DNA from: Candidatus Adlerbacteria bacterium
GTDB lineage: Bacteria > Patescibacteriota > Minisyncoccia > Phycocordibacterales > SBAW01
DNA: 64,000 nt
Assembly: GCA_027451965.1 (NCBI GenBank)
Contig: DAIDHJ010000001.1
Coordinates: 251,276 to 315,275, forward strand
Direction of reading: 5' to 3'
The notes under the pieces are model-generated. The model ran no database searches and was not told the DNA's origin. It worked only from the letters and a program-made list of their open reading frames with translations. This document shows positions 10,021-62,138 of this stretch, in pieces. The stretch's first letter is position 1, and each line of letters opens with the position of its first letter. Both the position numbers and the translations under genes were made by a program.

Positions 10021-10352
10021 GAAGGGTGTTGAGCAGGAGACTGTGCAAGACAGGATTCCTGCAAATGCTGTCAGTAGATGAAAAATCGCTTATTTGCGGG
10101 TGAGGGACGAATGCTGCACGCGCGTGTCCTTTCCGGCACTGTGCTGCATGGTGTTTTGGTTGCGGTGTTCCTCGCGCACGCTGCTCGTCTGCGGCGTCTT
10201 CTCGGCGTTCATCTATTGTTTTGTCTCCCAATGTAAAGAACGAAAAAGCACCCTCGAGTCGTCTGAGCCGAAAAACAGGTTCCTCAGAGAGGAACCATCT
10301 CAAACGATCGAGAATGCTCTGAAAAGATACCTTTCTACATTTTTTCTGTCAA

Positions 10353-10363
10353 CTTGGTATAGT
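10353..10363 (+). promoter_or_regulatory. extended -10 promoter element (TGgTATAGT)
   Basis: ttggtatagt lies about 43 nt upstream of the ATG at 10406. A GGAGG RBS sits at 10393-10397. Confidence 0.3.
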
Positions 10364-10405
10364 GCCTCACAGACGTTTCATCTACAGCAGAAGGAGGTTT
10401 GCTCA

Positions 10406-16538: not shown

Positions 16539-16727
16539 ATGGACAACGATGCATTTAAAAATCCTACAGACGCCGCTTTTGAGGAGTTGGTTCGACTGTT
16601 AGAGATGGACGAGGAATTGAACTCGGTCAAGGAGGCTATTTCTGCCGATATTCGTGCGGAGAATCCCGAATCTCTCGAAAATCTTAAACGGGCTCTTGTG
16701 TCGGATAATGAAAATCACAAACCTTAA
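16539..16727 (+). CDS. small acidic hypothetical protein (62 aa)
   Basis: ORF immediately upstream of, and overlapping by 20 nt, the ATPase start at 16708. Highly acidic (DEELNSVKEAISADIRAENPESLENL). No SD. Could be a spurious leader ORF. Confidence 0.3.
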   Translation: MDNDAFKNPTDAAFEELVRLLEMDEELNSVKEAISADIRAENPESLENLKRALVSDNENHKP

Positions 16728-23982: not shown

Positions 23983-24014
23983 TTCGCACTGCGGATTGGC
24001 TTACAGTAAGAACG

Positions 24015-25259
24015 ATGCCCAAGCTCATTGCTCGTATTTCTGTTGCATTCCTCTCTCTCCTCATCCTCGCACTCACCTTTATTCTGCCGCTGCGTTCCAT
24101 CCGTGCCCATGCTCAGCAGGTGGCGACTACACAAAATCCAAACAGCGCTCAAATCGCCCAGCTGCAACAGGAAATCGCCCAGCTGCAAACGCTCATTGAT
24201 TTCACCAAACAACAAAAACAGACACTCCAGACGGCTATCAAAGGTCTCAATCTCAACATAGAGGTAATAGGGAAGCATGTAGCGCTTACTCAGGCGCAAA
24301 TTAATCAAACCACGCAAGAGATCGGCGTGCTCTCTGGAAACATCTCGACTACCAATGGAAAAATTTCTTCTGAACAGCAGGGAGTAGCAACCACGCTTAA
24401 GCAGCTCAATGAACTGGATGCCGAACCCCTCTCAGTGATGCTGCTCTCCGGTACGTCTCTTTCGGCATTCTTTGGACAGGAAAGCAATCTCGCTGCCGTA
24501 CGAGATGGGCTGGATACGCAGATCCACAATCTCGGCATTTTGGAAGGAAGCTTACAGACCACTAAGTCTGCGGATGAACAGACGCGCCAGCAGCTCACGA
24601 CGCTCCATCAAACGCTGGCAAGTCAGGAAGAAAATCTTGCCGCGGCACGCAATGCGAAAACACAACTACTCGCGGAGACAGACAACAAAGAATCTAATTA
24701 CGAAACATTGCTTACTGAAGCGAAAGCGCAGCTTGCCAGCTTCTCCGCCTTCACCCAGAATGCTGGAGGATCAAAACTGCTCGGCAATCAGACAAGTTGC
24801 GACGCGTGGGGATGCTATTACAACCAACGCGATACTGCATGGGGAAGCGACTCACTCAACGGCACAAAGTACGATCTTGCCAGCGATGGCTGTCTTATCA
24901 CCTCTATGGCCATGGTATTCACGCATTATGGCTACAAAGATGTAACGCCGGTCACTATCAATGCGAATCCGAACAACTTCGCATCCTATTTTCCGGCGTA
25001 TTTGCTCTATACCATTTACGCTGACGGCGTGAGTGCGACCAGAAGAGTGGCAAGTATCGATCGAACACTCGCCGGAGGCGATCCGGTTATCGTGGGACTG
25101 CATGCCTATGGTGGTACTCACTTTGTGGTACTTACGCAAGGAAGCCACGGCAATTATATTATGCGCGATCCTTACGTTGCCGATGGAAAAGATATTCCAT
25201 TTTCTAGCCATTATTCGCTGCGAGAAATCTATTACGCGGCAAAAGTGATTATCGGTTAA
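24015..25259 (+). CDS. PcsB-like secreted coiled-coil protein with C-terminal CHAP/C39-like cysteine peptidase domain (putative peptidoglycan hydrolase)
   Basis: Signal/TM segment, a roughly 250-aa Gln-rich coiled coil, and a C-terminal domain with the candidate catalytic Cys (DGCLITSMAMV) and His (GGTHFVVL). Start at the ATG at 24015; the ORF-track start at 23871 overlaps the ada-like gene. Confidence 0.6.
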   Translation: MPKLIARISVAFLSLLILALTFILPLRSIRAHAQQVATTQNPNSAQIAQLQQEIAQLQTLIDFTKQQKQTLQTAIKGLNLNIEVIGKHVALTQAQINQTTQEIGVLSGNISTTNGKISSEQQGVATTLKQLNELDAEPLSVMLLSGTSLSAFFGQESNLAAVRDGLDTQIHNLGILEGSLQTTKSADEQTRQQLTTLHQTLASQEENLAAARNAKTQLLAETDNKESNYETLLTEAKAQLASFSAFTQNAGGSKLLGNQTSCDAWGCYYNQRDTAWGSDSLNGTKYDLASDGCLITSMAMVFTHYGYKDVTPVTINANPNNFASYFPAYLLYTIYADGVSATRRVASIDRTLAGGDPVIVGLHAYGGTHFVVLTQGSHGNYIMRDPYVADGKDIPFSSHYSLREIYYAAKVIIG

Positions 25260-27211: not shown

Positions 27212-27512
27212 CCAGCGCGTTGGACAGCAGCTCCTGCAAGGGAGAGGAAAGTCCGAACACTTGCCGAGATATTTCTCGGATCGGTAGCAGGTAACCCCTG
27301 CCATACGCTTCTAGTGGGCGTAAGAGGTGCGAACAGAGACGAGTCTTCGTGGAAACGCGAAGGGTGAAACGGCTAAATCCTTACTTGAGTGCAAGGCCGT
27401 GCCCCGCAAGGGGAGTGCCGCTGGAGCCGGGTGGTGACATCTGGCCAAGATAAATTGCTGTCATGTCTGCGCTGTCAGACAACAGAATTCGGCTTACAAA
27501 CGCGCGTACTAG
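27212..27512 (+). ncRNA. rnpB: RNase P RNA (bacterial type, compact)
   Basis: P4 5' strand GAGAGGAAAGTCCGAAC at about 27243 and P4 3' strand ACAGAATTCGGCTTAC at 27482-27497. GGGTGAAACGG and GTAAGAGGTGCG elements are present. P1 pairing agcgcgtt (27214) with aacgcgcg (27499). About 300 nt. Confidence 0.8.
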
Positions 27513-27520
27513 GATATGTG

Positions 27521-27546
27521 AACGCCCCGCACACCGCGGGGCGTTT
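27521..27546 (+). terminator. hairpin following rnpB (possible terminator or processing stem)
   Basis: acgccccgc / gcggggcgt with an acacc loop and a short ttt tail. Confidence 0.4.
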
Positions 27547-27607
27547 GCGTATGCAAAAACACGCTATACTGGATGATAATTACTGTAGTAATCAATGTAT
27601 TGTGTCT

Positions 27608-29920
27608 ATGCATCCCACAACGCCACTGCAACAACGATTTCTGTCCGGTGCCCGTATGCTCTATGTGATTGGTCTTGTCCTCGCGTTGATACTCATTATT
27701 CCCACTTCCTGGTTTCCGTTTCAGGTAGCAAAAATTGCAGCACTGACGACCTGTTTAGGGCTGGCGGCGCTTTGCCTCATTGCTGCAGATGGCATGCATC
27801 TATGGCGCAGTAAGGCTACGACAATTGCACTTACCGTCCTATCGTTGCCAGTCGCCTTTCTTATTTCCTGGTATGGATCCATTGACCGTTCGGTCGGTAT
27901 GCTGGGATTGGGAGGACTTGAGATAAGCACGATCTTCTTTACCGCACTGGCATTCCTTACTCTTCTTGGCGCATCACTTTTATTTCGTTCACAGCGCAGC
28001 ACCGCTCTTCTATTTAACGCACTGTTCGGCGCATTCATCCTTGCGGCAATCTTTCAACTGATAGCAGTCATATTTGGCACAAATGCATTGCCATTTCAGA
28101 CATTCACTGATCGCTCCGTAAACTTGATCGGCAAATGGAATGATCTTGGGCTGCTTCTGGGTATTCTGGTGTTGTGGAGTGTTATCAAACTTGAATGGAC
28201 GACACTGTCCCGGCTGCATCGCATCCTGCTTGTTCTCTTACTTCTTACTGTCGGTATACTGCTTGATCTTATTCATTTCCCAGTCGTGTGGGCACTGTTG
28301 TGCGGTTTCAGCGTGCTCTTTATCGCAGCACGATACATACTGCCACATGCCTCACGCTCTATACCATGGTATGCCGGCGCAGTTGCAGTGATTTCTATTC
28401 TCTTTTTAGTCTTTGGCACGCCGCTCAATACAAATCTAAGTAAAATATTCCCGGTTACCTCATTGGAAGTGCGTCCGTCATACCAAGCAACCGCGAATAT
28501 TATCACCGCGGCGCATCCTACTGTCTCACGTGCCCTCATCGGATCGGGTCCCGATACCTTTCGGCAAGAATGGTTCGTCAATCGGCCGGCGGAGGTGAAT
28601 CTTTCACCGTTCTGGAATCTTGATTTCACCGTTGGCTACTCAACACTACTCACTCTGTTTGCGGATGCAGGATTGCTCGGAGCTGCGGCATGGCTGTTGC
28701 CGCTATTCCTTACGTTGCTTTCCTTGTTTCGACTTGTTCGCTCATCTACCCATACGGATCTTGAAAAATTAATTGGCACTACCATAGCAGTTGGGGCAGT
28801 GTACTTATGGATAGCATCATGGTTCTACGTCTTAAGCCAAGACGTAGTGCTCCTTGCGTTTGTATTGACCGGCGTGCTTATCGGTATGGCGTACGGAGAA
28901 ACAGTTGCCACGCGACCTGCTTCACGGCTTGCGCTCTCTGGTATGTGGGTGGGCACGCTGCTTTTCTTCATTGCAACGGTCGGCGTAGCATATGCAGCAG
29001 ACCGGCTCTTTCTGTCAGATGCATATGCAAACCAAGGTCTTGCTGCACTCAGTGCCGGGAATACCCAAAAAGCGCTTGCGGATGCGGCTCGGTCTGCTGC
29101 ATATCAGCGCACGCCAAGCGCATTTGAACTTGCGGCCCAAGCGCATCTTTCCCAGTTGCAAGCTCTTGCCGCTGCATCTTCTACGCAAACGACGGCGCAG
29201 CAAAATGCCTTCATTGCTACAGCGCAACAGGCAATCGGGGAAGCAAAGGAAGCAAGTATGCTGGATCCACAAGACTACCAGCCATATGCGCTTCTTGGAC
29301 AGATATACAGTTTCCTTGCATCACTGAATGTGCAAGGAGCGTATTCCTTAGCACAGAATACATATGCGTTAGCGGCACAAAAAGATCCGACGAATCCGGA
29401 AATACCACTGTTGCAAGCGCAGCTGGCTGGAGCGGCAAATAATATGCAGGAGGTGCAGAACTACTTGCAGCAATCGCTCACCCTCAAACAAAATTTCACA
29501 AACGCTATCTTAACATTGGTGCAGCTTGATATTGCGCAAAAAGACATTAAAAATGCCATTGTCGCAGCGCAAGCAGCCGTACAGAGTGCTCCGAGCGTTC
29601 CTTCAGTATGGTTTGAATTAGGGTTGCTCTATTACAGTGAAGGGGATACTACCGATGCAATTCAACCGCTTGAACAAGCGGTGAAACTGCAGGGTAATTA
29701 CGCGAATGCAGAGTATTTCCTTGGTCTTTCGTATTATGCACAAGGCAAGACCGCGCAAGCGATCCAGCTGTTTAGCAATCTTGCCGCTACTAATCCGGAT
29801 AACCAGGAAGTAGCGCTCATTCTCTCGAACATGCAAGCGGGAAAATCCCCATTCACTTCAGCTAAGCCGCCCATTTCTACGCCTCCGCAGCGCCGTGCGA
29901 CTGCTCCGATTTCAGAGTAA
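27608..29920 (+). CDS. polytopic membrane protein, O-antigen ligase (Wzy_C)-like, with C-terminal TPR repeats
   Basis: About 10-12 hydrophobic helices in the first 500 aa, with a large loop containing WNDLGLLLGILVLWSV (Wzy_C-like). The C-terminal 250 aa has TPR-like repeats (WFELGLLYYSEGDTTDAIQPLEQAVKL, AEYFLGLSYYAQGKTAQAIQLFSNL). The ORF-track start at 27389 is rejected because it overlaps rnpB. Candidate starts are 27551, 27608 and 27656. Confidence 0.5.
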   Translation: MHPTTPLQQRFLSGARMLYVIGLVLALILIIPTSWFPFQVAKIAALTTCLGLAALCLIAADGMHLWRSKATTIALTVLSLPVAFLISWYGSIDRSVGMLGLGGLEISTIFFTALAFLTLLGASLLFRSQRSTALLFNALFGAFILAAIFQLIAVIFGTNALPFQTFTDRSVNLIGKWNDLGLLLGILVLWSVIKLEWTTLSRLHRILLVLLLLTVGILLDLIHFPVVWALLCGFSVLFIAARYILPHASRSIPWYAGAVAVISILFLVFGTPLNTNLSKIFPVTSLEVRPSYQATANIITAAHPTVSRALIGSGPDTFRQEWFVNRPAEVNLSPFWNLDFTVGYSTLLTLFADAGLLGAAAWLLPLFLTLLSLFRLVRSSTHTDLEKLIGTTIAVGAVYLWIASWFYVLSQDVVLLAFVLTGVLIGMAYGETVATRPASRLALSGMWVGTLLFFIATVGVAYAADRLFLSDAYANQGLAALSAGNTQKALADAARSAAYQRTPSAFELAAQAHLSQLQALAAASSTQTTAQQNAFIATAQQAIGEAKEASMLDPQDYQPYALLGQIYSFLASLNVQGAYSLAQNTYALAAQKDPTNPEIPLLQAQLAGAANNMQEVQNYLQQSLTLKQNFTNAILTLVQLDIAQKDIKNAIVAAQAAVQSAPSVPSVWFELGLLYYSEGDTTDAIQPLEQAVKLQGNYANAEYFLGLSYYAQGKTAQAIQLFSNLAATNPDNQEVALILSNMQAGKSPFTSAKPPISTPPQRRATAPISE

Positions 29921-40123: not shown

Positions 40124-41941
40124 TTGTGCTATAGTGCGTTGGTGAGTACTGAAAACGCAAAAGAACCTATTATTACAACGCATGGATTGCACACGGGAGC
40201 CCGTGTCCTGTGGCGCTATATTCGTATATATCGCCGGGAAATTGTCTTTATCACGATTCTCGGAGTGATTGCGGCTGTGGCAAATGCGACTGTTCCGTAC
40301 ATCGCCGGAAAGTTTTTCGATGCGATTATCACTCCGTCTCATATACAGCTGTTTGGACGCGTGTGGCCCTTGTATGCAGTGCTCCTTGCATTGTGGGCGG
40401 TCATACAACTCATCAATTCTCTCATGAATTGGCAGATTAATATTCGCAGTGAAAACTTTTCGAATACCGTGTGGGTGGATTATTGGTCTGCTGGTATTTC
40501 CAAAATACTGGAACTCCCCATGGCTTTCCATAAGGCAAAGAAAATAGGGGAAACAGAAGAGAAAATAAACCGCGCCTCAGGACAGCTGGAAACGATTGTA
40601 GGACAAATTGTCATTGATCTTACGCCGCAATTTCTCTCTATATTCGTGGTCATAGCGATTGGCCTTACCATAAGCTACTTGCTCACTCTAGCGCTCATCA
40701 TTGGTATTGTGCTGTATGTCATTATTTTGTTGCGCACGGTTCGTCCTATAGCTGAATTACAACGAGAATATCAAAAAAATCTATTTCGAGCCTATGGCGA
40801 CAGTTATGAACTGATGGGTAATGTAGCTACCGTCAAGCAGGCGGTTTCAGAAGCATATGAACGCAACCGTATCCTCACTCTCCTAAAAGGACCAGTACTC
40901 ACGCTCTGGAATAAAATGAACTTTATTTGGAGCAATCTTTCGCTTGCACAAGCAGTTATTATTCTTGCTACACAGCTCACTATTTTTATTATTTCTATCG
41001 CTCTGATTACCAAAGGAGTCATCACGATAGGAAATCTTCTGGCATTCAATGCCTATGCAACTATGGTATTCGGACCATTCGTGGTAGTGGGAAGACAATG
41101 GCAGACGATCCAAAATGGGTTGGTGCAGCTGGAAGAAGCGGAAAAAATTCTTGCCGAACCGTCTGAACAGTATGCGCCGGCAGGAGGCGATATTGGAGAA
41201 TTGCATGGTGATGTAGTGTTCAATCACGTTTCATTCGCGTATGAAGGCAATAGGCCGATATTGCAAGACGTATCATTCTCCGTACATGCAGGTCAATCGG
41301 TCGCCCTTGTAGGTGAATCGGGTGTGGGAAAATCGACTCTTATTGATCTTATTTCTGGATTTCATTTTCCCAATACGGGGGAAGTGCTCATAGACGGAAG
41401 ACCAACAAATACGCTCAATCTGAAGCAACTGCGTCAGCAGATTGGTGTAGTACCGCAAGAGGTTGTCCTCTTTAATGATACGATCAGAAACAACATTCGT
41501 TACGGCTCGTTTTCTGCTAGTGACACAGAAGTGCATGAAGCGGCAAAAGAAGCTTATGCACAGGATTTTATTCTGAAATTTCCGGATACCTGGGAGCAGT
41601 TGGTCGGCGAGCGAGGAGTGAAGCTCTCCGTAGGGCAGAAACAGCGGGTCGCAATTGCACGAGCGATACTGCGACATCCACGTATTCTGGTGTTGGATGA
41701 GCCTACCTCGGCCCTTGATGCGGGATCTGAACGGGCGGTGACTGAATCGCTGGAACGACTGATGAAAGGAAAAACTACTTTTATTATTGCGCACCGGCTT
41801 TCTACCGTACGGCGCGCTGATCTTATTTTAGTAATCAAAGACGGTCGTATCATTGAATCGGGTTCGCATGAAGAATTGCTGAGTAAAGAGGAAGGGGAAT
41901 ATCGCAGGCTCTATGAGCTGCAAATAGGATTACACGCATAA
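40124..41941 (+). CDS. ABC transporter, fused permease/ATP-binding protein (MsbA/multidrug-exporter type)
   Basis: Six-TM N-terminal domain, then an NBD with Walker A GESGVGKST, signature LSVGQKQRVAIARA, Walker B ILVLDEPTSALD and an H-loop IIAHRL. Confidence 0.8.
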   Translation: MCYSALVSTENAKEPIITTHGLHTGARVLWRYIRIYRREIVFITILGVIAAVANATVPYIAGKFFDAIITPSHIQLFGRVWPLYAVLLALWAVIQLINSLMNWQINIRSENFSNTVWVDYWSAGISKILELPMAFHKAKKIGETEEKINRASGQLETIVGQIVIDLTPQFLSIFVVIAIGLTISYLLTLALIIGIVLYVIILLRTVRPIAELQREYQKNLFRAYGDSYELMGNVATVKQAVSEAYERNRILTLLKGPVLTLWNKMNFIWSNLSLAQAVIILATQLTIFIISIALITKGVITIGNLLAFNAYATMVFGPFVVVGRQWQTIQNGLVQLEEAEKILAEPSEQYAPAGGDIGELHGDVVFNHVSFAYEGNRPILQDVSFSVHAGQSVALVGESGVGKSTLIDLISGFHFPNTGEVLIDGRPTNTLNLKQLRQQIGVVPQEVVLFNDTIRNNIRYGSFSASDTEVHEAAKEAYAQDFILKFPDTWEQLVGERGVKLSVGQKQRVAIARAILRHPRILVLDEPTSALDAGSERAVTESLERLMKGKTTFIIAHRLSTVRRADLILVIKDGRIIESGSHEELLSKEEGEYRRLYELQIGLHA

Positions 41942-43318: not shown

Positions 43319-43708
43319 TTGTTCCGTTTTGTGTTACTGTTTGGACTTCTGCTCTCTCTTCTTGTTAATGGGAAGGCGGAGGCGCATACAGTACCTGTAG
43401 CGCATAAAACCCACTATTGGATGTTGGCTAGTTGGTATAATCTTCCTGGTCGCACCATGGCGGATGGTAAGATCTTCAAAGAAGGAGATCCGACGATTGC
43501 AGCTAATCTTAGCCTACCCTTCGGGACTGTTCTTTGGGTAAAGAATCCTCATACAGGTAAGGTATTAAAAGTTATCGTACAAGACAGAGGACCCGCACGT
43601 CGGACCGGCCGACAGCTTGATCTATCTGAAGCGGCTGCCAATATTCTTGGGTATACCCTCGCTGGGGTAGTACATTTAGAAGTTGTTGCTATGCAGCCGC
43701 CAAAGTAG
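43319..43708 (+). CDS. RlpA-like double-psi beta-barrel (DPBB) domain protein
   Basis: Signal peptide, then ASWYNLPGRTMADGKIF...AANLSLPFGTVLWVKNPHTGKVLKVIVQDRGP....RQLDLSEAAANILG. Apparent TTG start with an AAGGAG RBS 7 nt upstream. Confidence 0.65.
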   Translation: MFRFVLLFGLLLSLLVNGKAEAHTVPVAHKTHYWMLASWYNLPGRTMADGKIFKEGDPTIAANLSLPFGTVLWVKNPHTGKVLKVIVQDRGPARRTGRQLDLSEAAANILGYTLAGVVHLEVVAMQPPK

Positions 43709-52492: not shown

Positions 52493-54964
52493 ATGGCGAA
52501 ATCTGAAAAATATCCTCCTGAACAGGAGTCCTCACAGCATATTGTTCCGCGCAATATCTCAACCGAGATGCGCGAAGCGTATCTCGACTACGCCATGAGC
52601 GTTATTACCGCGCGCGCCCTTCCGGATGTGCGTGACGGTCTCAAACCGGTACATCGTCGCATTCTCTACACCATGTTGCGCAATGGTCTCACCCCTTCGG
52701 CTCGGTTTCGAAAATCAGCTGCGGTCGTTGGAGATGTGATTGCAAAATATCATCCTCACGGTGATGCAGCAGTATATGACGCCATGGTTAAAATGGCACA
52801 AACATTCGCGATGCGTTATCCGCTAGTGATTGGTCAAGGAAACTTCGGGTCAATCGACGGTGATGCAGCGGCTGCCTACCGATACACCGAAGCAAAAATG
52901 TCGCGTATTGCTGAAGAGATGCTGCGAGATATTGATAAAGAAACCGTTGAATGGCGTCCAAACTATGACGGATCGCTCCAGGAGCCAGTGGTTCTTCCTG
53001 CGGCGGTTCCTAATATTTTACTCAATGGCACGTTGGGTATTGCCGTTGGTATGGCGACAAATATTCCTCCACATAACCTGCAGGAGTTGTCTGCCGCGCT
53101 TGAGCACCTTTTAGAGTATCCAGAAGCAACCGTCGAAGATCTTATGGAGTTTGTTTCCGGTCCCGATTTCCCGACTGGCGCTGTTGCATTTAATAAAAAA
53201 GACCTGCTACATGCGTACTCGACAGGAAAGGGAGGAGTGATTGTCCGCGGACAGGCGGAAATTGTAGAAGACAAGAAGGGAAATTTTCAAATTGTCGTTT
53301 CATCGCTACCTTACAGAGTTAATAAGGCAGATTTACTGGTGCGTATCGCGGATCTGGTGCGAGATAAAAAACTCGAGGGTATTCGAGGCTTGCGTGATGA
53401 ATCAACGAGAGATATTCGCATTGTGCTTGATCTCAAACAAGGAAGCCAGCCGCAGAAGGTGCTGAATTATCTCTATAAGCACACAGCTCTTGAGGATACC
53501 TTCCATTTCAACATGGTAGTGCTGGTTGATGGTGTGCCGCAAACGCTTTCTCTCAAAGGAATCCTTCAGGAATTTCTCAAGCATCGTCAGGAGGTGGTGC
53601 GTCGTCGGACGCAGTTTGATTTGCGAAAAGCGCAGGAACGGGAGCATATTCTCCTTGGTCTCAAGAAGGCACTTGATGTCATTGATCAGATCATTAAAAC
53701 AATTCGAGGATCGAAGGATGTGGCCGATGCGCACGCTAATTTGATGAAACAATTCAAGTTTTCCGACCTGCAAGCAACAGCGATTTTGGAAATGCGTCTG
53801 CAGAAACTGGCGAATCTCGAGCGTAAAAAAGTGGAAGATGAGCTTAAGGACATCCAGGCTATCATCGAAGAACTCAGTGGATTACTGAAGAGCGAAAAGA
53901 AAATTGCAGGAGTAGTCCGCAAGGAAATTGCAGATATTGCGAGTCGGTATGGTGATGACCGTCAGACGAAAGTGGTGAAAGGTGCGGTAGGAGTCATAAA
54001 TGTGGAAGATCTGGTTCCAGATGAGGAACAGGTATTAGTGCTTACTGCTGGAGGGTATGTAAAACGGACAAATCCGGAAGAATACCGAAAACAGAAGCGT
54101 GGTGGTGTAGGGGTTATTGATCTCAACACCAAAGAAGAAGATTTTGTCACGACATTTCTTACTACCTCGACACATAGTGATCTCCTGTTCTTCACTGATC
54201 GAGGAAAAGCATATCAAATCAAAATGTATGATTTGCCAGAAGGGAAACGCTCTACCAAAGGAAAGGCTCTGGTAAACTACCTTTCTATCTCAGAAGGAGA
54301 GAAGGTAACGTCAGTGCTCCCGCTCCGTAAGAATGAAAAAGAAGGCAAATCATTCCTTTACCTTATTACCCGTCAGGGTGTTGCGAAGAAGGTGGATGCG
54401 ACAGCATTTCATGATGTCCGACGCAGTGGTCTCATTGCCGTTAAACTGCAACCAGGAGATGAGCTTATTGCAGCACTCCTTACGGAAAAAGATGATGAGC
54501 TTTTCCTCTCTTCTGCAAAAGGGCAGTCCATTCGTTTCAAAGAAAGCGATATTCGGTCCATGGGTCGCAGTGCTGGCGGAGTGCGTGCTATGAAATTGGC
54601 AACCGGCGATGTAGTGGTTGGTGCTGACGTGATACGCAAGGGTCGCGCAGACATGGAGGTACTCGTGGTCTCGCGCAATGGCTATGGAAAAACAACACCA
54701 GTGAATGAATATAAAATCCAAAAACGTAGCGGCAGTGGTATAAAAACGGTAAAAGTAACACCAAAGACTGGACCATTAATTGCCGCTCGTATTATTTCTC
54801 GAGCAGCGGAAGAAGAGGAACAGGAGATCGTAGTTATTTCCAAGAAAGGACAAGTGATCCGCACTGGGCTGTCTGAAATTCCATCACTTTCACGCGGCAC
54901 CCAAGGCGTGCGTATCATGAAACTCCGGGAAGGGGATGCTATTGCTTCATTTGTGTGTCTCTAA
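52493..54964 (+). CDS. gyrA: DNA gyrase subunit A
   Basis: [27 protein letters not shown], catalytic Tyr region AAAMRYTE-like (AYRYTEAKM), and the C-terminal beta-pinwheel repeats. 823 aa. Confidence 0.95.
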
Positions 54965-54992: not shown

Positions 54993-55547
54993 ATGGAAGG
55001 TTCGTTTCTACATCCTACGCAGACGCTGCGCGCCGCTGGCGTGACCGAAGGCATGTGTGTTGCTGATTTCGGGGCCGGTTCGGGATTTTTCACTCGCGCC
55101 GCAGCACGCCTTGTGGGACCCATAGGAGTAGTATGGGCTATCGATGTGCACCGAGATCTCCTTACTCGGGTAAAGAATCTCGGCACAGCAGAAGGGTTAT
55201 CAAATATTGAAATTGCGTGGGGAGATGTTGCCTTACCTAAAGGGAGTCATTTGCCGGCACAGAGCTGTGATCTGGTGCTCATAACCAACATACTCTTTAT
55301 GCTTGAATCTAAAAGAGAAGTGCTTCATGAGGCTGCACGCGTGCTTAAGCCACAAGGGCAAATTCTCCTCATTGATTGGACGAGTTCACACGATGGATTG
55401 GGACCGCACCCTGATCATATATTTACAGAAGCTGCTGCACGCACAGTGTGCGAGCAGGAAGGATTTTCAGTGCTGCGTCCTGTTCCTGCGGGCGCATATC
55501 ATTGGGGATTGATCGTTCGCAAAAACATGACAAAGGACGCACAATAA
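54993..55547 (+). CDS. class I SAM-dependent methyltransferase
   Basis: VADFGAGSGFFT motif I, acidic motif II (AIDVH), and motif IV LKPQGQILLIDW. Confidence 0.7.
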   Translation: MEGSFLHPTQTLRAAGVTEGMCVADFGAGSGFFTRAAARLVGPIGVVWAIDVHRDLLTRVKNLGTAEGLSNIEIAWGDVALPKGSHLPAQSCDLVLITNILFMLESKREVLHEAARVLKPQGQILLIDWTSSHDGLGPHPDHIFTEAAARTVCEQEGFSVLRPVPAGAYHWGLIVRKNMTKDAQ

Positions 55548-55555: not shown

Positions 55556-56860
55556 ATGAAACTCTCTATGTTTCAATTGATTGTACTCATTTCCTTTGTT
55601 GGCTTTTTGCTTGCAGGGATTGCCGCTTTTTCACTATTTGGAGGTAATAGAGGCAGTAGTATTGGCCAAGTAACCATATGGGGAACTCTTGATCAGCAAA
55701 CTATGCAATCACTCTTAGTGACTCTACGCTCTCAAAATAAAGAATTTCAAAATGTAACGTATGTACAGAAAGACCCAAGCACGTACTACACAGATCTTAT
55801 CAACGCTATGGCAAGTGGTACCGGACCAGATCTCTTTTTTATAACTCAGGATACCGTCACTAACTTTTCTAATAAAATTACTGTAATTCCATACAGTGCT
55901 GAATCACAAGCCACATACCTTTCTTCATTTCTCAATGAGGGACAACTTTTTTTGACTCCACAAGGAGCACTTGCGTTACCATTTAGTATTGATCCACTGG
56001 TGATGTACTGGAATAAAGATTTATTTGCTTCTGCGGGTATTGCGCAACCTCCGGTATATTGGAGTGATTTTCTTTCCTTGGCACCGCAAATTACTTCTAT
56101 TGATACGAGTTCTAATATTGCACGGAGTGCGGTAGCACTTGGTTCCTGGAAAAATATTACTCACGCAAAAATGATCCTATCAGCACTATTCATGGAAGCA
56201 GGAGATCCAATTATGCTGCGTACAGGATCGGGATCATTAGAATCAGTATTTGGTACTACTCCAGCCGCAGCTGCAGAAAATCCTGCATCTTCAGCTTTGC
56301 TATTTTATACAGAGTTTGCGAATCCTTCTAAAACTACGTATTCCTGGAATGATGCATTACCCCAATCACGGGATGCATTTGCTGCAGGAAATGTTGCTGT
56401 ATATTTTGGCACTGCAAGTGATAATCAGTTACTACTTCAAACAAATCCAAATTTAAATTTTGGTGTTGCGCTGCTACCGCAGATTAAGGGGAATGCCACA
56501 CACCTTACTTTCGGAGAACTTACTGGATTAGCTATTTCACGTAGTGCATCTAATCCGCAAGGAGCACTTGCAGTCGCGCAGGCGTTAACAAGTCTTTCGA
56601 TACAAGAATCACTCTTACAACAAGGTACAGTAATACCGGCGCGTAGTGATATTTCTATAAATACCAGTGCTAATGCCGCTGAGGCAATATTTGAACAGTC
56701 TGCAATTATGTCGCAAGGTTGGCTTGACCCGGATCCTAGTGCAACTGATCCACTTTTTGAGAACATGATAGAATCGGTAGTAACAGGGCAGCAAGATCCC
56801 GCACAAGCAGTAGCACAAGCTTCACAAGCAATGATACAACTTAGTACTACAGCACAATAA
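55556..56860 (+). CDS. extracellular solute-binding protein (ABC SBP family 1-like), membrane-anchored, no cognate permease/ATPase adjacent
   Basis: N-terminal TM anchor, then GTGPDLFFITQD ... MYWNKDLF motifs typical of SBP_bac_1. Start at the ATG at 55556. The stop overlaps the start of the next gene (TAATG). Confidence 0.55.
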   Translation: MKLSMFQLIVLISFVGFLLAGIAAFSLFGGNRGSSIGQVTIWGTLDQQTMQSLLVTLRSQNKEFQNVTYVQKDPSTYYTDLINAMASGTGPDLFFITQDTVTNFSNKITVIPYSAESQATYLSSFLNEGQLFLTPQGALALPFSIDPLVMYWNKDLFASAGIAQPPVYWSDFLSLAPQITSIDTSSNIARSAVALGSWKNITHAKMILSALFMEAGDPIMLRTGSGSLESVFGTTPAAAAENPASSALLFYTEFANPSKTTYSWNDALPQSRDAFAAGNVAVYFGTASDNQLLLQTNPNLNFGVALLPQIKGNATHLTFGELTGLAISRSASNPQGALAVAQALTSLSIQESLLQQGTVIPARSDISINTSANAAEAIFEQSAIMSQGWLDPDPSATDPLFENMIESVVTGQQDPAQAVAQASQAMIQLSTTAQ

Positions 56861-57345
56861 TGAAACGTATTATACGAGGATTATTCATACAAAGTTACCT
56901 CTTCTCACTTCCATTAGTATCTTTTGCAAGTGGTTCCACTGGAGGAGGCGGAGGAAGTACAGGCGGTGGAGGTGGTTCCACTGGAGGAGGCGGAGGAAGT
57001 ACAGGCGGTGGAGGTGGTTCCACTGGAGGAGGCGGAGGAAGTACAGGGACATTAATAAATCCTTTAAATGCAAATTCAGTTTGTGGTTTTTTGAAAGATG
57101 TACTTAATATTGTAATGCAAATTGCAATGCCAATTGCCTTATTATTTTTAGTATTAGCAGGATTTCAACTCGTTGCTGCTAGGGGAAATCCTGAAGCACT
57201 TACAAAAGCCAGAAAGAATCTCATTTATACGATTATTGGAATCGGCCTTTTTTTGGGAGCCTGGACTTTAGCGTTAGTACTTGCCAATACTATCAATGCC
57301 CTAGGTAGCTCTCTCGGACAGCCTAATAGTGTTGGTACTTGTTAA
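56860..57345 (+). CDS. secreted two-helix membrane protein with N-terminal (STGGGGG)5 repeat; TrbC/VirB2-like pilin candidate (paralog 1)
   Basis: Signal peptide and a Gly-Ser repeat tract, then two long hydrophobic helices separated by the polar loop ARGNPEALTKARKN. Confidence 0.5.
   Translation: MKRIIRGLFIQSYLFSLPLVSFASGSTGGGGGSTGGGGGSTGGGGGSTGGGGGSTGGGGGSTGTLINPLNANSVCGFLKDVLNIVMQIAMPIALLFLVLAGFQLVAARGNPEALTKARKNLIYTIIGIGLFLGAWTLALVLANTINALGSSLGQPNSVGTC
56938..57047 (+). repeat. tandem direct repeats (about 42-bp unit, 3 copies) encoding (STGGGGG)n
   Basis: ggttccactggaggaggcggaggaagtacaggcggtggaggt repeated nearly perfectly three times, in frame with the gene. Confidence 0.7.
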
Positions 57346-57349
57346 TTAT

Positions 57350-57601
57350 ATGAGTCTTACACTAGCTGGTATCGTAGGAAATATTGTCAACCTTATTAAC
57401 ACTACTATTCCTGTTCTTTCTACATTAGCATTGGCAATATTTTTACTAGGAATTGTTCGATATTTGTATTCTGAAACACAAGGGAAAAAGGACCAATCTA
57501 GAGAAGTAATTATATGGGGCATTATAGCCTTATTTATCATCTTTTCTTTGTGGGGAATTATTGCGGTAATGAAAAGCGTTTTGCTACCACCGGGGTTCTA
57601 A
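57350..57601 (+). CDS. two-helix small membrane protein (paralog 2, no signal peptide)
   Basis: 83 aa from the ATG at 57350: helix, then polar loop SETQGKKDQSRE, then helix ending SLWGIIAV, the same layout as the neighbouring paralogs. Confidence 0.4.
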   Translation: MSLTLAGIVGNIVNLINTTIPVLSTLALAIFLLGIVRYLYSETQGKKDQSREVIIWGIIALFIIFSLWGIIAVMKSVLLPPGF

Positions 57602-57673
57602 TCTCTATCCACACCGTCCTATTGTTTGGTTACACTAGTTTGCTACAGTGAAGGCATGTCTAATAATATTTAT

Positions 57674-58036
57674 ATGAAGAAAATACTAACAATTGCCGGA
57701 ATAATTTTTTCCATTCCGCTCCTTACCTTTGCTCAAGCGTCAAATGGTAATTCGTATATTAATTACTACATTACTCTTATACAGCAGGTGAGTTATATTC
57801 TTCATATCCTCATTCCTATTCTGGTTACTGCCGCTATTGTTATATTCTTCATTGGCTTAGTTCAATACATCTTTAAGCCTGATGATAAGGAAAAACCAAA
57901 GAAGACGATGATTGCAGGTATTGTGAGCATTTTTATCATGGTTTCATTGTGGGGGATTATCAGTTTGCTCCAGAATGTAGCGGGAGTAAATCCTAACTAC
58001 GTAAATCCTATACAACAAGGTCCTCAAGTACAATAA
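57674..58036 (+). CDS. secreted two-helix membrane protein, TrbC/VirB2-like pilin candidate (paralog 3)
   Basis: Signal peptide MKKILTIAGIIFSIPLLTFAQAS. Helix 1 LIPILVTAAIVIFFIGLVQYI, loop FKPDDKEKPKKT, helix 2 MIAGIVSIFIMVSLWGIISLL. About 60% identical to the 59799..60221 paralog. Confidence 0.5.
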   Translation: MKKILTIAGIIFSIPLLTFAQASNGNSYINYYITLIQQVSYILHILIPILVTAAIVIFFIGLVQYIFKPDDKEKPKKTMIAGIVSIFIMVSLWGIISLLQNVAGVNPNYVNPIQQGPQVQ

Positions 58037-58066
58037 AAATGTTCAACGTACAGTTGAGTCTATGGT

Positions 58067-58477
58067 ATGACGTCTGTCAGTAGCTTTGTAAGTGTAATAT
58101 CAACAAATATCATTAATCCTATTCTGGAGCTCATTTTTGCTTCCGGACTCTTACTTTTTTTAGTGGGAGTAGTCCAGTTTTTAATAGCCCTTTATCAAGG
58201 GAATAATGATGCAAAAAAGAAAGGACAACAGCATTTATTGTGGGGTGTACTAGGTATGTTTGTGATGTTAAGTGCTGTTGCTATTCTCCATTTTATTGGA
58301 AGTATTGCCTGCCAAAACGGAAGTTTGACTAATTGTTTCCCAACCTCAACTAATAGCGGGGGCGGTTCCACCGGAGGCGGAGGTGGTAGTACTGGCGGAG
58401 GTGGAGGAAGTATAGGTGGTGGAGGCGGTTCCACCGGAGGCGGAGGTGGTAGTACTGGTAATGTTCACTTTCAATAA
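58067..58477 (+). CDS. two-helix membrane protein with C-terminal (STGGGGG)n repeat (paralog 4)
   Basis: Helix, loop QGNNDAKKKGQQ, helix (LLWGVLGMFVMLSAVAIL), Cys-containing linker, then Gly-Ser repeats at the C-terminus. Confidence 0.5.
   Translation: MTSVSSFVSVISTNIINPILELIFASGLLLFLVGVVQFLIALYQGNNDAKKKGQQHLLWGVLGMFVMLSAVAILHFIGSIACQNGSLTNCFPTSTNSGGGSTGGGGGSTGGGGGSIGGGGGSTGGGGGSTGNVHFQ
58365..58458 (+). repeat. tandem direct repeats encoding C-terminal (STGGGGG)n tract
   Basis: ggcggttccaccggaggcggaggtggtagtactggcggaggtggaggaagtataggtggtggaggc... near-identical about 42-bp units. Confidence 0.7.
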
Positions 58478-58482
58478 AAAAG

Positions 58483-58508
58483 CACCCTCACCTTTTATGG
58501 TGAGGGTG
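58483..58508 (-). terminator. hairpin terminator overlapping the stop of 58495..59268 (minus strand)
   Basis: caccctcacc / ggtgagggtg with a tttta loop. On the minus strand it is followed by ttttttattg. The last four codons of the minus-strand gene lie in the stem. Confidence 0.45.
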
Positions 58509-59268
58509 GTAGGAGAGCATATCCTCCAATCAGCGGCATGTTCTCTGCTAGGATCTTCTGGAAATGTGCTCCTGGTTTGATTCTTGCTGTTTTACCGCCA
58601 TCGGCAACACAGGTGGTTTTGTTCTGTAAATCGACGAAGCAGAAGGGTGTGCCTTCAGCAACATCGATATGCAGATTACAGTGTCCCGCTAAGTTTATTA
58701 CCTTGGACATCTGATGTGGTTTCAGATTTAAAGGTTGTTCAACTCCGTTACAAGCTGGGGTCATTGTCACACTCATCATTTGATTTGATAGAGCGTGTGT
58801 AGAACCTTGTGCTATGGTTGGAGTTGATACACTGGAAGGTGTTGTTGCAAAGTATGTGGTTATGTTTGGAACGACTCCGAAACACAGTATCAGACCACCA
58901 ATGCAACAGCCTTCGAGAAATCTTGCAGAACGCTCATGACCTATTCGTGCAAAAGCACGTAGTACCGGTATCTCCAAGAGAAACCAGATACCCAGGTTAA
59001 ACCATGGTCGGTGCAGGTTGTTAACCTGTAGTTGTAAGCCAATACCGTGTGCCATGACAATGAGCACGGCCACAATAAATGGACCAACGAGGAAATTCAC
59101 TGCCAGAAGGAGTCCTAAGGAGACGGTGAACAATCTCCCCAACGGAATTTCCCAGAATATCTGGATGAAAAACCGGATGACGTCCTGGAAAATTTTTCTT
59201 GCTTCTTCTGTAAGTGTTTCGAAAATTCCCTTTGGTGATGGGTTAGCCAACACAATTCCTCCTTTCAA
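58495..59268 (-). CDS. hypothetical membrane protein with Cys-containing C-terminal extracytoplasmic domain
   Basis: About four TM helices in the N-terminal 150 aa, then a Thr/Ser-rich linker and a domain with four cysteines (ACNG...GHCNLH...FCFVDL...TCVADGG). Confidence 0.45.
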   Translation of the reverse strand: MKGGIVLANPSPKGIFETLTEEARKIFQDVIRFFIQIFWEIPLGRLFTVSLGLLLAVNFLVGPFIVAVLIVMAHGIGLQLQVNNLHRPWFNLGIWFLLEIPVLRAFARIGHERSARFLEGCCIGGLILCFGVVPNITTYFATTPSSVSTPTIAQGSTHALSNQMMSVTMTPACNGVEQPLNLKPHQMSKVINLAGHCNLHIDVAEGTPFCFVDLQNKTTCVADGGKTARIKPGAHFQKILAENMPLIGGYALLPPSP

Positions 59269-59342
59269 AGGACGATGACTGTGAGGCAGTATAACATTAA
59301 TTTATTTTTTGTCAAATTATTATATTTATATAAAACCGATTG

Positions 59343-59425
59343 TGGGCGAGGGGAGACTCGAACTCCCAAGCCTTGCGGCACATGGTCCTAAGCCATGCGT
59401 GTCTACCAATTTCACCACTCGCCCC
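59343..59425 (-). tRNA. tRNA-Leu (TAG)
   Basis: Reverse complement gives acceptor GGGCGAG/CTCGCCC, anticodon arm CATGG-CTTAGGA-CCATG, long variable arm, T-arm GGGAG-TTCGAGT-CTCCC. Confidence 0.8.
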
Positions 59426-59438
59426 CATATCAACGAAC

Positions 59439-59512
59439 TGGAGTCCACGGCGGGAATCGAACCCGCGTATAAGGGTTTTGCAGACCCATGCCTTACCACT
59501 TGGCCACGTGGA
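59439..59512 (-). tRNA. tRNA-Cys (GCA)
   Basis: Reverse complement gives acceptor GTCCACG/CGTGGAC, anticodon loop CTGCAAA, T-arm GCGGG-TTCGATT-CCCGC, encoded CCA. Confidence 0.75.
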
Positions 59513-59581
59513 CGCATGTTGTACTGTACCATGCATCATTCATTTTGAAATACATCACAACGGAGGTATAAAGATAGAGAA

Positions 59582-59669
59582 GCCGGGATGGCGGAATTGG
59601 TAGACGCGCGACACTTAAAATGTCGTGAGCTCGTATGGGCGCGTGTGGGTTCGATTCCCACTCCCGGCA
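59582..59669 (+). tRNA. tRNA-Leu (TAA)
   Basis: Acceptor GCCGGGA/TCCCGGC, anticodon arm CGACA-CTTAAAA-TGTCG, long variable arm, T-arm GTGGG-TTCGATT-CCCAC. Confidence 0.8.
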
Positions 59670-59709
59670 CATTGTGAGAGTGTTTATTATATTGTAGTTT
59701 GATACATAT

Positions 59710-59782
59710 CCGCCCATAGCTCAATTGGTAGAGCAGCTGCCTCTTAAGCAGTTGGTTGTAGGTTCGAGTCCTACTGGGCGGA
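59710..59782 (+). tRNA. tRNA-Lys (CTT)
   Basis: Acceptor CCGCCCA/TGGGCGG, D-arm GCTC-AATTGGTA-GAGC, anticodon arm GCTGC-CTCTTAA-GCAGT, T-arm GTAGG-TTCGAGT-CCTAC. Confidence 0.8.
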
Positions 59783-59798
59783 CTTATTTATGAGTTTC

Positions 59799-60221
59799 TT
59801 ATGGAAGCGGACCTCTTATAGTTCCGGGATTATTAGGAGGATTATTATTAGTACTATATCCGCCCAGTACAGGAGCAGATTGTGTAGCGGTAGCACTTAT
59901 ACCAAAAACATTTTGTATAACGGTAATGATTCCCCAGAGAGACACCATAATAAAGAGCGCGGAAATACCTGCAATCATAATCGCTTTTGATTTTGCTTTA
60001 TCGTCCGGTTTTGCGATGTATTGTATTAACCCAACAAAGAATACAACTATAGCGAGTGTAACTAAAATGGGAACAAGATCACTCAGAATCTTCCCAATGG
60101 TTGCGATAAGGTTTTCCCAATTTGTAACAGTCTGAACACCTTGATAACCAACAGAGCTTTGTGCAGAGGCTAATAGTGGTATAAAAAAAATACTTCCCAC
60201 GGTGCCCAGTAGCTTTTTCAT
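59799..60221 (-). CDS. secreted two-helix membrane protein, TrbC/VirB2-like pilin candidate (paralog 5)
   Basis: Signal peptide MKKLLGTVGSIFFIPLLASAQSS. Helix 1 LVPILVTLAIVVFFVGLIQYI, loop AKPDDKAKSKA, helix 2 IMIAGISALFIMVSLWGIITVI. Pro/Asn-rich tail. Confidence 0.5.
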   Translation of the reverse strand: MKKLLGTVGSIFFIPLLASAQSSVGYQGVQTVTNWENLIATIGKILSDLVPILVTLAIVVFFVGLIQYIAKPDDKAKSKAIMIAGISALFIMVSLWGIITVIQNVFGISATATQSAPVLGGYSTNNNPPNNPGTIRGPLP

Positions 60222-60309: not shown

Positions 60310-60627
60310 TCAGGAGAGTTCATCTAGTCGTTGTCGATTTTTCTCTCCTTTATCGATCATAAATTCAATGTGCGGCATACGCATACCGCGTACACGAGTG
60401 CGTAGAAATTCTGCAAGTTCGCCACAGTGTCGATTTGCAAACTCTAAACCGGATTGCTCGGCACTTTCTGGAAGTACGGTAATAAAAATAGTAGCGCGTC
60501 GTCCATCGTGAGAAAGGTCAGTATCGGTGACCGTAATAAGTGACTGGCGGCTTGCTTCACGAGCAAGGAATTCTGCCGCTGCTTCTCGTACTGCTTCTCG
60601 AGCGCGTTCTTCTCGATTGCTGTTCAT
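60310..60627 (-). CDS. rbfA: ribosome-binding factor A
   Basis: 105-aa KH-like protein: ITVTDTDLSHDGRRATIFITVL and LAEFLRTRVRGMRMPHIEFMID. Immediately downstream of infB. Confidence 0.8.
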   Translation of the reverse strand: MNSNREERAREAVREAAAEFLAREASRQSLITVTDTDLSHDGRRATIFITVLPESAEQSGLEFANRHCGELAEFLRTRVRGMRMPHIEFMIDKGEKNRQRLDELS

Positions 60628-62138
60628 ACCAGTGTGATTTCGTACGTTATGAGCGTATCTCCTGTCGCCGGTGTGCCGGTTGTTTTTAGTAATGCGCCAA
60701 ATTCTTTACCTTTCTCTACTTTTTTTACTTCTGTTTTTTGTGTCTGCAGTGAAAGAATTTCTCCGCGTCCTATTTCAAGGTCGCGACGCATAATCTTACA
60801 GGCATTTCCTACTGCAAGCTCTCCTTCTTCAACTCTTCCGCCAAGCACTATTCTATTTTTTATTGTGCTGAATATTTTCAAAATGCGAGCAGACGCAATG
60901 ATTGATTCCTGATGTGTCCGTGGACGCCGTTGTTCTATTTCCGTACTGAGCCACTCGCTGAGTTTGTAGATGATATCAAATAGGGCAATAGTAACGCCGA
61001 GACGTTCCGCAATGTCTTTCGCTTCTTTCTCTATTTTTACGTTGAACCCTAGAATAATGCCAGGAGTAGATCCGGCGCCGAGCATGCGTACATCGCTTTC
61101 AGTGATATTGCCAACATTCGTAGCAATAACACGTATCTCAAGTCCTGCAGCTGCAGGAATTTTTTCTATTTCATGCCGTACTGCTTCTCCAGTTCCTGCA
61201 ACATCGGTTTTAATAAGAAGCGGAAGTATGGTCGGTTTATTCTCTTCTTCTGTTTCTGATTGGGAAAAAGGAGAAATCGACTCGCGCAAGGGTACAGCTT
61301 GTGCAACTGCTTCCTCAGCTTGTTTTTTTGTTTCTACTGTATGCCATATATCTCCCACTTTAGGCAGGGAAGAGAATCCAACGATGCGTATCGGACTTCC
61401 TGCTGAGGCATGTTTCACCTGTACTCCGAGAAAATTCTCCATGATGCGCACCGGTGCATACGCTTTTCCTGATACGGCGAATTCGCCGGTAGCGATACTG
61501 CCATCTTTAATGATGAGTGTTGCGGTGTTGCCACGGCGAGGGTCTACATTTGCCTCTATCACCACACCTTCCGCGGGAATAGCAGGATGTGCAGCGAGTC
61601 CTTCCAGTTCAGCGGCCAAAAGAATGAGATCGAGTAGTTCTGGAACACCTGCTCCGGTTTTTCCTGATACGGCGACATACGGTACGTCTCCCCCCATACC
61701 TTCCAAAAATACTTGCTGTTCCAGCAGTGACAGTTTTGCACGTTCCAAGTCGCTACCCGGTTTGTCTATCTTGGTAAATGCGACGATATAGGGAATCTGT
61801 GCTTGTGTAATGAGTTGTAATGCCTCTAGTGTCTGCGGTTTGACTCCCTCTTCCGAGGACACGACAAGCACGGCCACGTCCGCCACCTCCAGTCCTCGGG
61901 ATCGCATGGCACGGAATGCTTCATGGCCGGGCGTATCGAGAAAGGTAATATGGCGTATTCCTTGGGGCGTTTGATGTTCCGCTTCATATGCAGAGAGATG
62001 TTGGGTAATGCCTCCTACTTCAGAAGCAACCACATTTGTACGGCGAATATAATCGAGCAAGGTCGATTTTCCGTGATCGATGTGTCCTACAATAGCGACA
62101 ATGGGAGGACGCTCCTGCGTCGTTGGTTGCTGTTCCAT
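60624..62138 (-). CDS. infB: translation initiation factor IF-2 (short form)
   Basis: G domain [17 protein letters not shown] ... DTPGHEAF ... TKID. IF-2 domain II and the C-terminal beta-barrels. 504 aa, lacking the long N-terminal region. Confidence 0.9.

Follow-up and report, generated by a model that had tools for sequence, protein, structure and literature searches.

An A-B-B-C array of VirB2/TrbC-like hairpin proteins coupled to a solute-binding protein: a probable pilin module of a Patescibacteria type IV secretion-like apparatus

TrbC/VirB2 pilins, of which the F-pilin TraA is a functional analogue, undergo head-to-tail cyclisation. RP4 TrbC and Ti-plasmid VirB2 have a pair of hydrophobic helices joined by a short basic loop, as do the products of the five paralogous genes (P1 to P5) that we describe here, three of which also carry a predicted leader, as those pilins do. 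The five lie between gyrA (52493-54964) and rbfA-infB (60310-62138) in the window under study, a 64-kb stretch of a 548,072-bp contig from a Candidatus Adlerbacteria bacterium. The likeness of their type-A member to TrbC/VirB2 by hidden Markov model (HMM) is weak but consistent. The window family differs from these pilins in its monoderm host, in having no adjacent virB3, virB4, virB5 or virB6, in having two leaderless subtypes and several non-identical subunits in a fixed order, and in the long low-complexity stretch that follows the cleavage site of type A. We propose that the array and the solute-binding protein encoded directly upstream probably constitute the pilin module of a Patescibacteria apparatus resembling a type IV secretion system (T4SS).

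Arrays of pilin genes in Patescibacteria have been published, and loci of this kind are therefore known. In a survey of 3,035 Patescibacteria genomes that used PF18895 and PF04956, Quinonero-Coronel et al. (2025) reported VirB4 in 2,417 assemblies, VirB2-like genes in 1,948 VirB4-positive assemblies (near virB4 in 1,135), and 441 arrays of 2-11 VirB2-like genes averaging 25% identity; coupling proteins are counted in 2,918 genomes, with just 148 near virB4, and the VirB2 arrays of Bartonella and Anaplasma are cited as an analogy (PMC12102498). In Wang et al. (2023), six PF18895 pilins, SEML1_0014-0019, lie inside a T4SS cluster and are essential for the epibiotic growth of Southlakia epibionticum (PMC10633639). 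Among T4SSs, this T4SS-like system of Patescibacteria, pilin array included, stands alone in having been shown essential to its carrier (PMC10633639, PMC12857230), and a 2025 review describes Patescibacteria systems as unique among monoderms for potential pili.

With four tandem genes (P1-P4) and one 1.3 kb away (P5), the window locus fits the definition of a Patescibacteria VirB2-like array as the excerpted text gives it (PMC12102498). It resembles the arrays of Southlakia epibionticum ML1 (SEML1_0014-0019) and TM7x, the latter Sec-secreted, in Pfam family, in its tandem, divergent two-helix proteins and in its monoderm, ultra-small host, and the Southlakia account, in the part covered, also includes an extra, non-essential copy on the opposite strand past a tRNA (SEML1_0024), a parallel to P5. 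However, the Southlakia array is placed by the same excerpts inside a T4SS cluster, whereas the window array sits between gyrA and infB, outside any T4SS cluster, and is coupled to a family-1 solute-binding protein, none of which is listed for the Southlakia cluster in the sections consulted. The A-B-B-C order and the hypervariable type-A linker described below find no mention for published arrays in those same sections (PMC10633639, PMC12102498). The features at issue are as follows.

55562-56860, plus strand: membrane-anchored family-1 (sugar-type) extracellular solute-binding protein (PF01547, 79 bits)
56860-57345, plus strand: paralog 1 (P1), type-A pilin, 161 aa (PF18895 47.4 bits, TrbC 24.1 bits)
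56930-57047, plus strand: perfect 42-bp x 2.8 tandem repeat in P1 (Tandem Repeats Finder, TRF; 100% matches)
57350-57601, plus strand: paralog 2 (P2), type-B pilin, 83 aa (PF18895 23.9 bits)
57674-58036, plus strand: paralog 3 (P3), type-B pilin, 120 aa (PF18895 30.2 bits)
58067-58477, plus strand: paralog 4 (P4), type-C terminal pilin, 136 aa (PF18895 21.0 bits)
58356-58458, plus strand: degenerate 21/42-bp Gly-rich repeat in P4 (TRF period 21, 64% matches)
59799-60221, minus strand: paralog 5 (P5), extra type-B pilin, 140 aa, inverted, past a tRNA cluster (PF18895 24.4 bits)

All five pilin open reading frames (ORFs) of the initial annotation are present at the coordinates it gave, and the topology that it had read in them is confirmed by alignments and hydropathy segments, which have two hydrophobic helices flanking a Lys/Arg/Asp-rich loop. 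A local family HMM picks exactly these five among the window ORFs of at least 50 aa. A helix/charged-loop/helix layout of about 80-160 aa in total is the expected form of PF18895 (T4SS_pilin), and this is the form of the five proteins; PF18895 is also the best Pfam match for each of them, with P1 and P3 above its gathering cut-off of 26.6 bits. A TrbC (PF04956) search, which the initial annotation had suggested as a check of its TrbC/VirB2-like pilin reading, gives a divided answer: P1 reaches 24.1 bits (E 4.4e-5), below the cut-off of 27.9 bits, while 8 of 9 P1 (type-A) orthologues match at E<0.01 (best, 1.3e-7), three of them with precomputed PF04956 matches, and types B and C return no PF04956 match. 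The NCBIfam model of pilin-like proteins from Mycoplasma integrative and conjugative elements (ICE), NF045849, is the top model for P1 (32.3 bits, E 5.8e-8) and for P2, and matches P3, P4 and P5 more weakly; no other NCBIfam model matches as many as four of the paralogs. Type-A (P1-like) and type-B (P3-like) profiles are homologous to each other (hhalign probability 89.7%, E 1.8e-6). In pairs, the five paralogs are 17-54% identical, about 25% on average. Together these matches support the pilin reading, and on the strength of their sequences the five genes are members of the PF18895 T4SS pilin family. The type-A family is very large, with 29,416 representatives (50% identity) that match its profile at E<=1e-3.

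Three of the paralogs, as had been noted, carry predicted Sec-type leaders with a basic N-terminus and a hydrophobic core; these are P1, P3 and P5, and their leaders end in SFA, AQA and ASA, respectively. An SLWGII ending had been attributed to all five proteins, but it occurs in P2, P3 and P5 only, with LGAWTLA in P1 and LSAVAIL in P4. The Mycoplasma ICE proteins Mbov_0395 and MMCAP2_0565 (NF045849) are likewise VirB2-like hairpins in wall-less or monoderm bacteria with reduced genomes; however, the window proteins score under the 40-bit cut-off of that model, and the Mycoplasma gene is single-copy on a mobile element with conjugation genes, whereas the window array is chromosomal, vertically conserved and multi-copy. 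We also considered type IV pilins (T4P, including those of type II secretion), which are small secreted or membrane "pilins" too and are also important in Patescibacteria. This identity was rejected: the window proteins have no class III leader (G/FTLxE), a Pfam scan of the five gave no N_methyl or type IV pilin match, and they have two transmembrane (TM) helices as against one helix and a globular head.

The order of the subunits is conserved well beyond the window. A scan of species-representative genomes found 31 loci, all in Patescibacteria (Adler-, Kaiser- and Vogelbacteria, Paceibacterota and Parcubacteria among the names), and a metagenome scan with the type-A profile added 80 further loci; the closest match among GTDB representatives is 45% identical, and the window species is not a representative. 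The genome loci hold 2-8 tandem pilin genes, nearly all 3-8, and nearly all loci with enough sequence keep the order metallo-beta-lactamase (MBL)-fold gene, gyrA, methyltransferase, binding protein, pilins, rbfA, infB. Type A comes first in 63 of the 66 complete arrays and type C last in 56, the commonest arrangements being ABBC (36 arrays) and ABBBC (10); the window array is ABBC with an inverted extra B. The nearest relatives keep the leader pattern as well (A with, first B without, second B with, C without), and types A, B and C are orthologous, in the same order, across genomes whose GyrA proteins are just 60-80% identical. The paralogs are thus no lineage-specific expansion but ancient subtypes in a fixed order, which argues for distinct, co-assembling roles over interchangeable variants. 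Natural fusions lend support to co-assembly: single-chain proteins (P0145, P0146, P0147, P0173) consist of 5-8 tandem type-A hairpins and reach 820 aa and 16 predicted helices. P0145 is present in two independent assemblies (L121:8001-10463; L122:230-2692) and the genes after it encode a 155-aa pilin, a pilin-PKD fusion of 383 aa and a multi-PKD protein of 718 aa.

The partnership with the binding protein is equally regular. Its stop codon overlaps the P1 start in the TAATG at 56858-56862, so that the translational coupling described initially is present; orthologues of 27-77% identity stand directly upstream of the array in related loci, and the distance from binding-protein stop to first pilin start lies between -11 and +11 nt in 78 of 89 of these, 27 of the 78 overlapping. 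Its best relatives among solved structures are sugar-binding proteins (5ci5, E 6.6e-10). Pfam finds no BPD_transp permease or importer ATPase among the window ORFs, and the sole ATP-binding cassette (ABC) protein of the window (40124-41941) is of the fused exporter type. The binding protein, called an orphan at the outset, is not there by chance but as a conserved operon partner. We note that a second solute-binding protein in the window, SBP_bac_5 (7954-9705, minus strand, 583 aa), likewise has no permease or ATPase partner nearby.

Sequence variation in this family is concentrated in one segment of one subtype. In P1, a signal peptide spanning aa 1-23 is followed by the (STGGGGG)5 linker, the NPL motif and a core of helix, RGNPEALTKARK loop and helix. 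In a set of 77 distinct type-A proteins, the linker, taken as the segment from the leader to the NPL motif, varies in length between 0 and 99 aa with a median of 23 aa; G, S, T, P and N make up 67% of it, and it often consists of 7-10-aa tandem repeats. In three groups of strains whose type-A cores are 90-99% identical (L051, L062, L068, L073 and L084; L072, L078 and L086; L105 and L111), the linkers are just 13-44% identical, and in two of the groups the leader differs as well. One leader-plus-linker module is found on different cores in L072 and L111, which suggests mosaic recombination, or module exchange, at the type-A N-terminus. In another type-A protein (L009:8790-9470) a PKD domain (PF18911, 40 bits) lies between leader and pilin domain, the position that the STGGGGG repeat occupies in the window. 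Added material, be it this insertion or the pilin-PKD fusions, is tolerated at the pilin termini alone, and this, together with a hypervariable linker beside a core that is 90-99% identical, speaks for termini that are exposed at the surface. In 52 of the 77 proteins, a Cys just behind the NPL motif is accompanied by another at the C-terminus or close to it (alignment A6 for the orthologues), in P1 as Cys75 (57082-57084) and the C-terminal Cys161 (57340-57342). As a speculation, the pair may form a disulfide that ties the outward-facing ends together, in mimicry of TrbC/VirB2 cyclisation. An AlphaFold2 (AF2) model of P1 has a hairpin (H71-106 / H111-151) and a disordered linker; at a mean predicted local distance difference test score (pLDDT) of 54.7 it is a low-confidence model, of use only for the disorder of the repeat.

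The five STGGGGG heptads reported right after the P1 signal peptide are encoded as described, by 2.8 copies of a 42-bp unit at 100% identity, and the prediction that this repeat varies in length finds support in near-identical assemblies. The 161-aa P1 allele with five heptads occurs solely on the 548-kb contig, whereas a 147-aa allele with three heptads, shorter by exactly one 42-bp unit, is present in three ENA assemblies and in the metagenome-assembled genome (MAG) GCA_021825025.1 (loci L001/L036, L034, L037 and L038), with flanks 98-100% identical to the window. The competing explanation is that a perfect 42-bp repeat has been collapsed during short-read assembly and that there is no biological variation, and we regard this artefact as a serious possibility, though the less probable of the two. 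It would fit the origin of all four three-heptad copies in k141-named, short-read-style assemblies or a fragmented MAG, the location of the sole five-heptad copy on a long contig, and the 100% identity between L037 and the window in both flanks of the repeat. However, an array of 118 nt is below k=141 and ought to be resolved in assembly; L034, which also has three heptads, is a separate strain (98.0-99.3% identity) under another project accession; and across the clade this position of the linker is hypervariable for reasons that cannot lie in collapse. As a separate observation on these strains, the pilin region of the window (56860-58787) is 2.0% divergent from that of L034, about three times the divergence of the upstream region from gyrA to the binding protein (0.7%), while a third population (L001/L036) has the opposite pattern, with 0% in the pilin region and 0.45% upstream.

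The other paralogs differ from P1 in leader, tail or orientation. P2 is 83 aa long, or 89 aa if read from an upstream GTG start, and the second gene of the array also lacks a signal peptide in L003, L024 and L085. The AF2 model of P3 is the better of the two (pLDDT 76.9, core 85-94), with a signal helix at 2-20 ahead of a hairpin (H27-67 / H73-103), the predicted signal peptide ending in AQA. The C-terminal tail of P4 is species-specific and contains CQNGSLTNC as well as four S(T/I)GGGGG heptads. The STGGGGG-type repeat reported at this C-terminus thus exists, with one of its four heptads being SIGGGGG, but it is not encoded by the near-perfect 42-bp DNA repeat that had been described, as TRF reports a 21-bp period in 4.6 copies with 64% matches. 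It is 81% identical in DNA to the P1 repeat over 89 nt. In strain L034/L035 the P4 repeat is equally long, but 15 of its 103 nt are changed and SIGGGGG has another position; we also observed that the region 58300-58480 is a substitution hotspot against L034 and L035, with 21 of 181 nt changed, as compared with about 2% in the pilin region as a whole and 0.7% in the sequence upstream. Because the type-C tails of other species are short, conserved and not hypervariable, the P4 tail is a species-specific acquisition, probably derived from P1 to judge by their sequences.

P5 is 53-54% identical to P3, has a predicted signal peptide and is the sole minus-strand copy among about 110 loci. P3 and P5 are a pair of younger duplicates; relatives, too, have B genes duplicated in tandem. 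We considered a shufflon or inversion between P3 and P5 and rejected it, as the arms are just 75% identical over 110 nt of DNA and no further inverted repeats are present. An independent assembly, 37 kb long, of the same population (ENA contig k141_2732165, L001/L036) breaks inside P5, at 59866, which may stem from strain variation or from the likeness of P5 to P3.

Taken as the pilin module of a type IV secretion-like apparatus, the locus would consist of the binding protein and an A-B-B-C series of VirB2/TrbC-like hairpins with an extra inverted B. By analogy with those pilins, each hairpin would sit in the cytoplasmic membrane with its basic loop inside and both termini outside, P1, P3 and P5 entering through Sec and signal peptidase and P2 and P4 inserting leaderless. 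The subtypes would co-assemble and not substitute for each other, and a VirB4-dependent machine encoded elsewhere would extract them into a surface filament or an envelope-spanning conduit for contact with a host cell. As knowledge of VirB2 and TraA pilins suggests, the subunits may polymerise with the basic loop lining the lumen. With a cytoplasmic loop and outward termini, the repeats of P1 and P4 would decorate the outer surface, where the N-terminal linker of P1 and the C-terminal repeat of P4 could act as flexible, slippage-prone, recombining surface tags.

A number of observations weigh against the pilin-module reading, which we nevertheless hold to be probable. A Pfam scan of the approximately 50 window ORFs finds no VirB4, VirB6, VirB8 or VirD4, in agreement with the initial annotation for VirB4, VirD4 and VirB6, and none of the four is found within 10 kb of about 110 related arrays, except for a coupling-protein-like ATPase in L114; nowhere in the window or in the roughly 110 loci are pilin genes clustered with virB3, virB4, virB6 or virB8. 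Such clustering is not obligatory, as the published counts consulted place the pilin near virB4 in 1,135 of 1,948 assemblies (PMC12102498). The ATPase of L114, a distant locus, lies 2.6 kb from the array (9157-10797; TrwB_AAD_bind, T4SS-DNA_transf, TraG-D_C) and is unusually well conserved, with at least 8000 homologues of 60-89% identity dispersed across Parcubacteria (5.8 billion proteins searched). The 548,072-bp contig, of which the 64-kb window was the part visible to the search of its own genome for an ATPase, is not among the best 120 of these at least 8000 homologues (P0025-P0144), and the neighbourhood of one homologue (L119, L120) holds an LTD/PKD protein and glycosyltransferases, with no VirB4 or pilins. 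Also unfavourable are the scores of P2, P4 and P5 under the PF18895 cut-off, though PF18895 remains their best match and the local family HMM ties them to the family at 86-153 bits (P2, 89.6; P5, 152.5); the absence of a leader from P2 and P4 on reading of their sequences, when VirB2 typically has a signal peptide; the conserved binding-protein partnership, which has no counterpart in classical T4SS; and the literature on PF18895, which in the portions covered contains no visualised filament, so that polymerisation is an analogy here. The type-A profile retrieved no pilin from PDB sequences; PDB fold and sequence searches do not discriminate here, the fold being too simple.

Several of these points would suit a different arrangement, in which the hairpins are not pilus subunits but form, with the binding protein, a T4SS-independent membrane complex, a channel or anchor that replaces the missing permease and serves uptake or sensing. 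The close spacing between the end of the binding-protein gene and the first pilin gene, at 78 of 89 loci, would fit such a complex, as would the lack of an ABC permease or ATPase near the array within the window, the lack of VirB4 within 10 kb at about 110 loci and the leaderless P2 and P4, and the covalent concatemers of 5-8 hairpins (10-16 TM helices) resemble polytopic membrane proteins. We nonetheless consider this arrangement unlikely, given the homology with TrbC/VirB2 as well as with the pilin-like family of Mycoplasma ICEs, the long disordered or PKD-bearing extracellular extensions, which better fit a displayed filament, the PF18895 genes of Saccharimonadia, which in the published sections covered lie inside an essential T4SS cluster with no binding protein, and the proximity of pilin and virB4 in 1,135 of 1,948 assemblies in the parts of the survey seen (PMC12102498). 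Less probable still, indeed hardly credible on present data, is that the five genes are interchangeable major pilins in a variation cassette of the Bartonella/Anaplasma type, one being used at a time against phages or host defences. This idea has been raised for Patescibacteria arrays in the literature, as far as the consulted text goes (PMC12102498), and would be in keeping with paralogs that are 17-54% identical, with the younger duplicates P3 and P5 and with the tandem B duplicates of relatives. It is at odds with the orthology and constant order of A, B and C across genomes with GyrA 60-80% identical, with the conserved pattern of leaders, with the absence of invertible or recombinogenic repeats between the copies, the P3/P5 arms being 75% identical, and with the arrangement of the four tandem genes in apparently one operon with a single terminator. 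The VirB2 arrays of Bartonella (Trw) and Anaplasma phagocytophilum are comparable in the tandem amplification and diversification of T4SS pilin genes, but their copies are recent, similar and thought to be alternatives for surface variation, whereas the window copies are ancient orthologous subtypes and, unlike those arrays, concentrate their variation in one linker of one subtype.

The surroundings of the array include the following further features.

54993-55547, plus strand: class I S-adenosylmethionine (SAM)-dependent methyltransferase, 184 aa (Pfam Methyltransf_11/31/25)
58483-58508, no strand: GC-rich hairpin with a 10-bp stem between convergent stops (terminator scan, consensus match only)
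58495-59268, minus strand: membrane protein of 257 aa with 7 Cys, convergent to P4 (ORF)
59342-59783, both strands: four tRNAs, Leu-TAG and Cys (minus), Leu-TAA and Lys (plus)

From its sequence, the hairpin is likely a bidirectional terminator that closes an operon running from the binding protein to P4, and P1-P4, all in tandem, appear to belong to one operon that ends at this single terminator. In 26 of the 31 genome loci and in most metagenome loci the gene directly before that of the binding protein is an orthologue of the methyltransferase; the methyltransferase gene may be in the same transcription unit, and a role in the pilin system could be envisaged. The four-tRNA cluster and the Cys-rich protein are present in the middle of the locus as initially described, but they are bystanders and not part of it. 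As a component of the system the 257-aa protein was rejected, since more than 110 related loci contain no homologue of it and since it has a promoter-like site of its own, a strong one at 59315-59288; it shares the hairpin terminator with P4 and has no Pfam or NCBIfam match. In relatives its position is taken by SPFH/Band-7-like membrane proteins, and the convergent downstream genes there were rejected as VirB6-like candidates, being SPFH/Band-7-like or without a Pfam match.

The window as a whole has 48% G+C, carries groES/EL, gyrA, ftsA/Z, infB and 11 tRNAs and resembles a reduced Patescibacteria genome, the host being of the Parcubacteria/Paceibacteria type. Among its other ORFs, all on the plus strand, are an 819-aa SMC/AAA_23-like ATPase (16654-19113), a 462-aa Peptidase_C39-like protein (23871-25259), an 843-aa protein with C-terminal TPR repeats (27389-29920) and a small secreted DPBB protein resembling lytic transglycosylases (43319-43708).

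Binding-protein coupling, the A-B-B-C order, the hypervariable type-A linker and variation in the STGGGGG repeat appear unreported in the portions of the T4SS literature searched. A bolder proposal, which we put forward as doubtful, is that in Paceibacteria the binding protein and the pilins are one self-contained host-contact module, in which the binding protein would be the receptor or tip-like partner of a hetero-oligomeric A-B-B-C filament or conduit, and the type-A N-terminal module (leader plus linker), swapped by recombination and resized by slippage, would set host specificity or allow phage evasion. Such a module might work without a classical VirB4-centred cluster, and if the proposal is true, it would be an organelle derived from T4SS pilins, and no T4SS has been described with such a partner or such a mechanism of variation.

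A large part of the uncultured bacteria are Patescibacteria, which apparently live attached to other microbes. The locus is no new kind of system, but it offers three handles for the Paceibacteria, the largest class: a conserved binding-protein partner with a testable ligand; a fixed subunit order that predicts hetero-oligomeric assembly and is backed by natural poly-pilin fusions; and a short, surface-predicted segment that differs among near-identical strains and is the obvious candidate for host or phage specificity.

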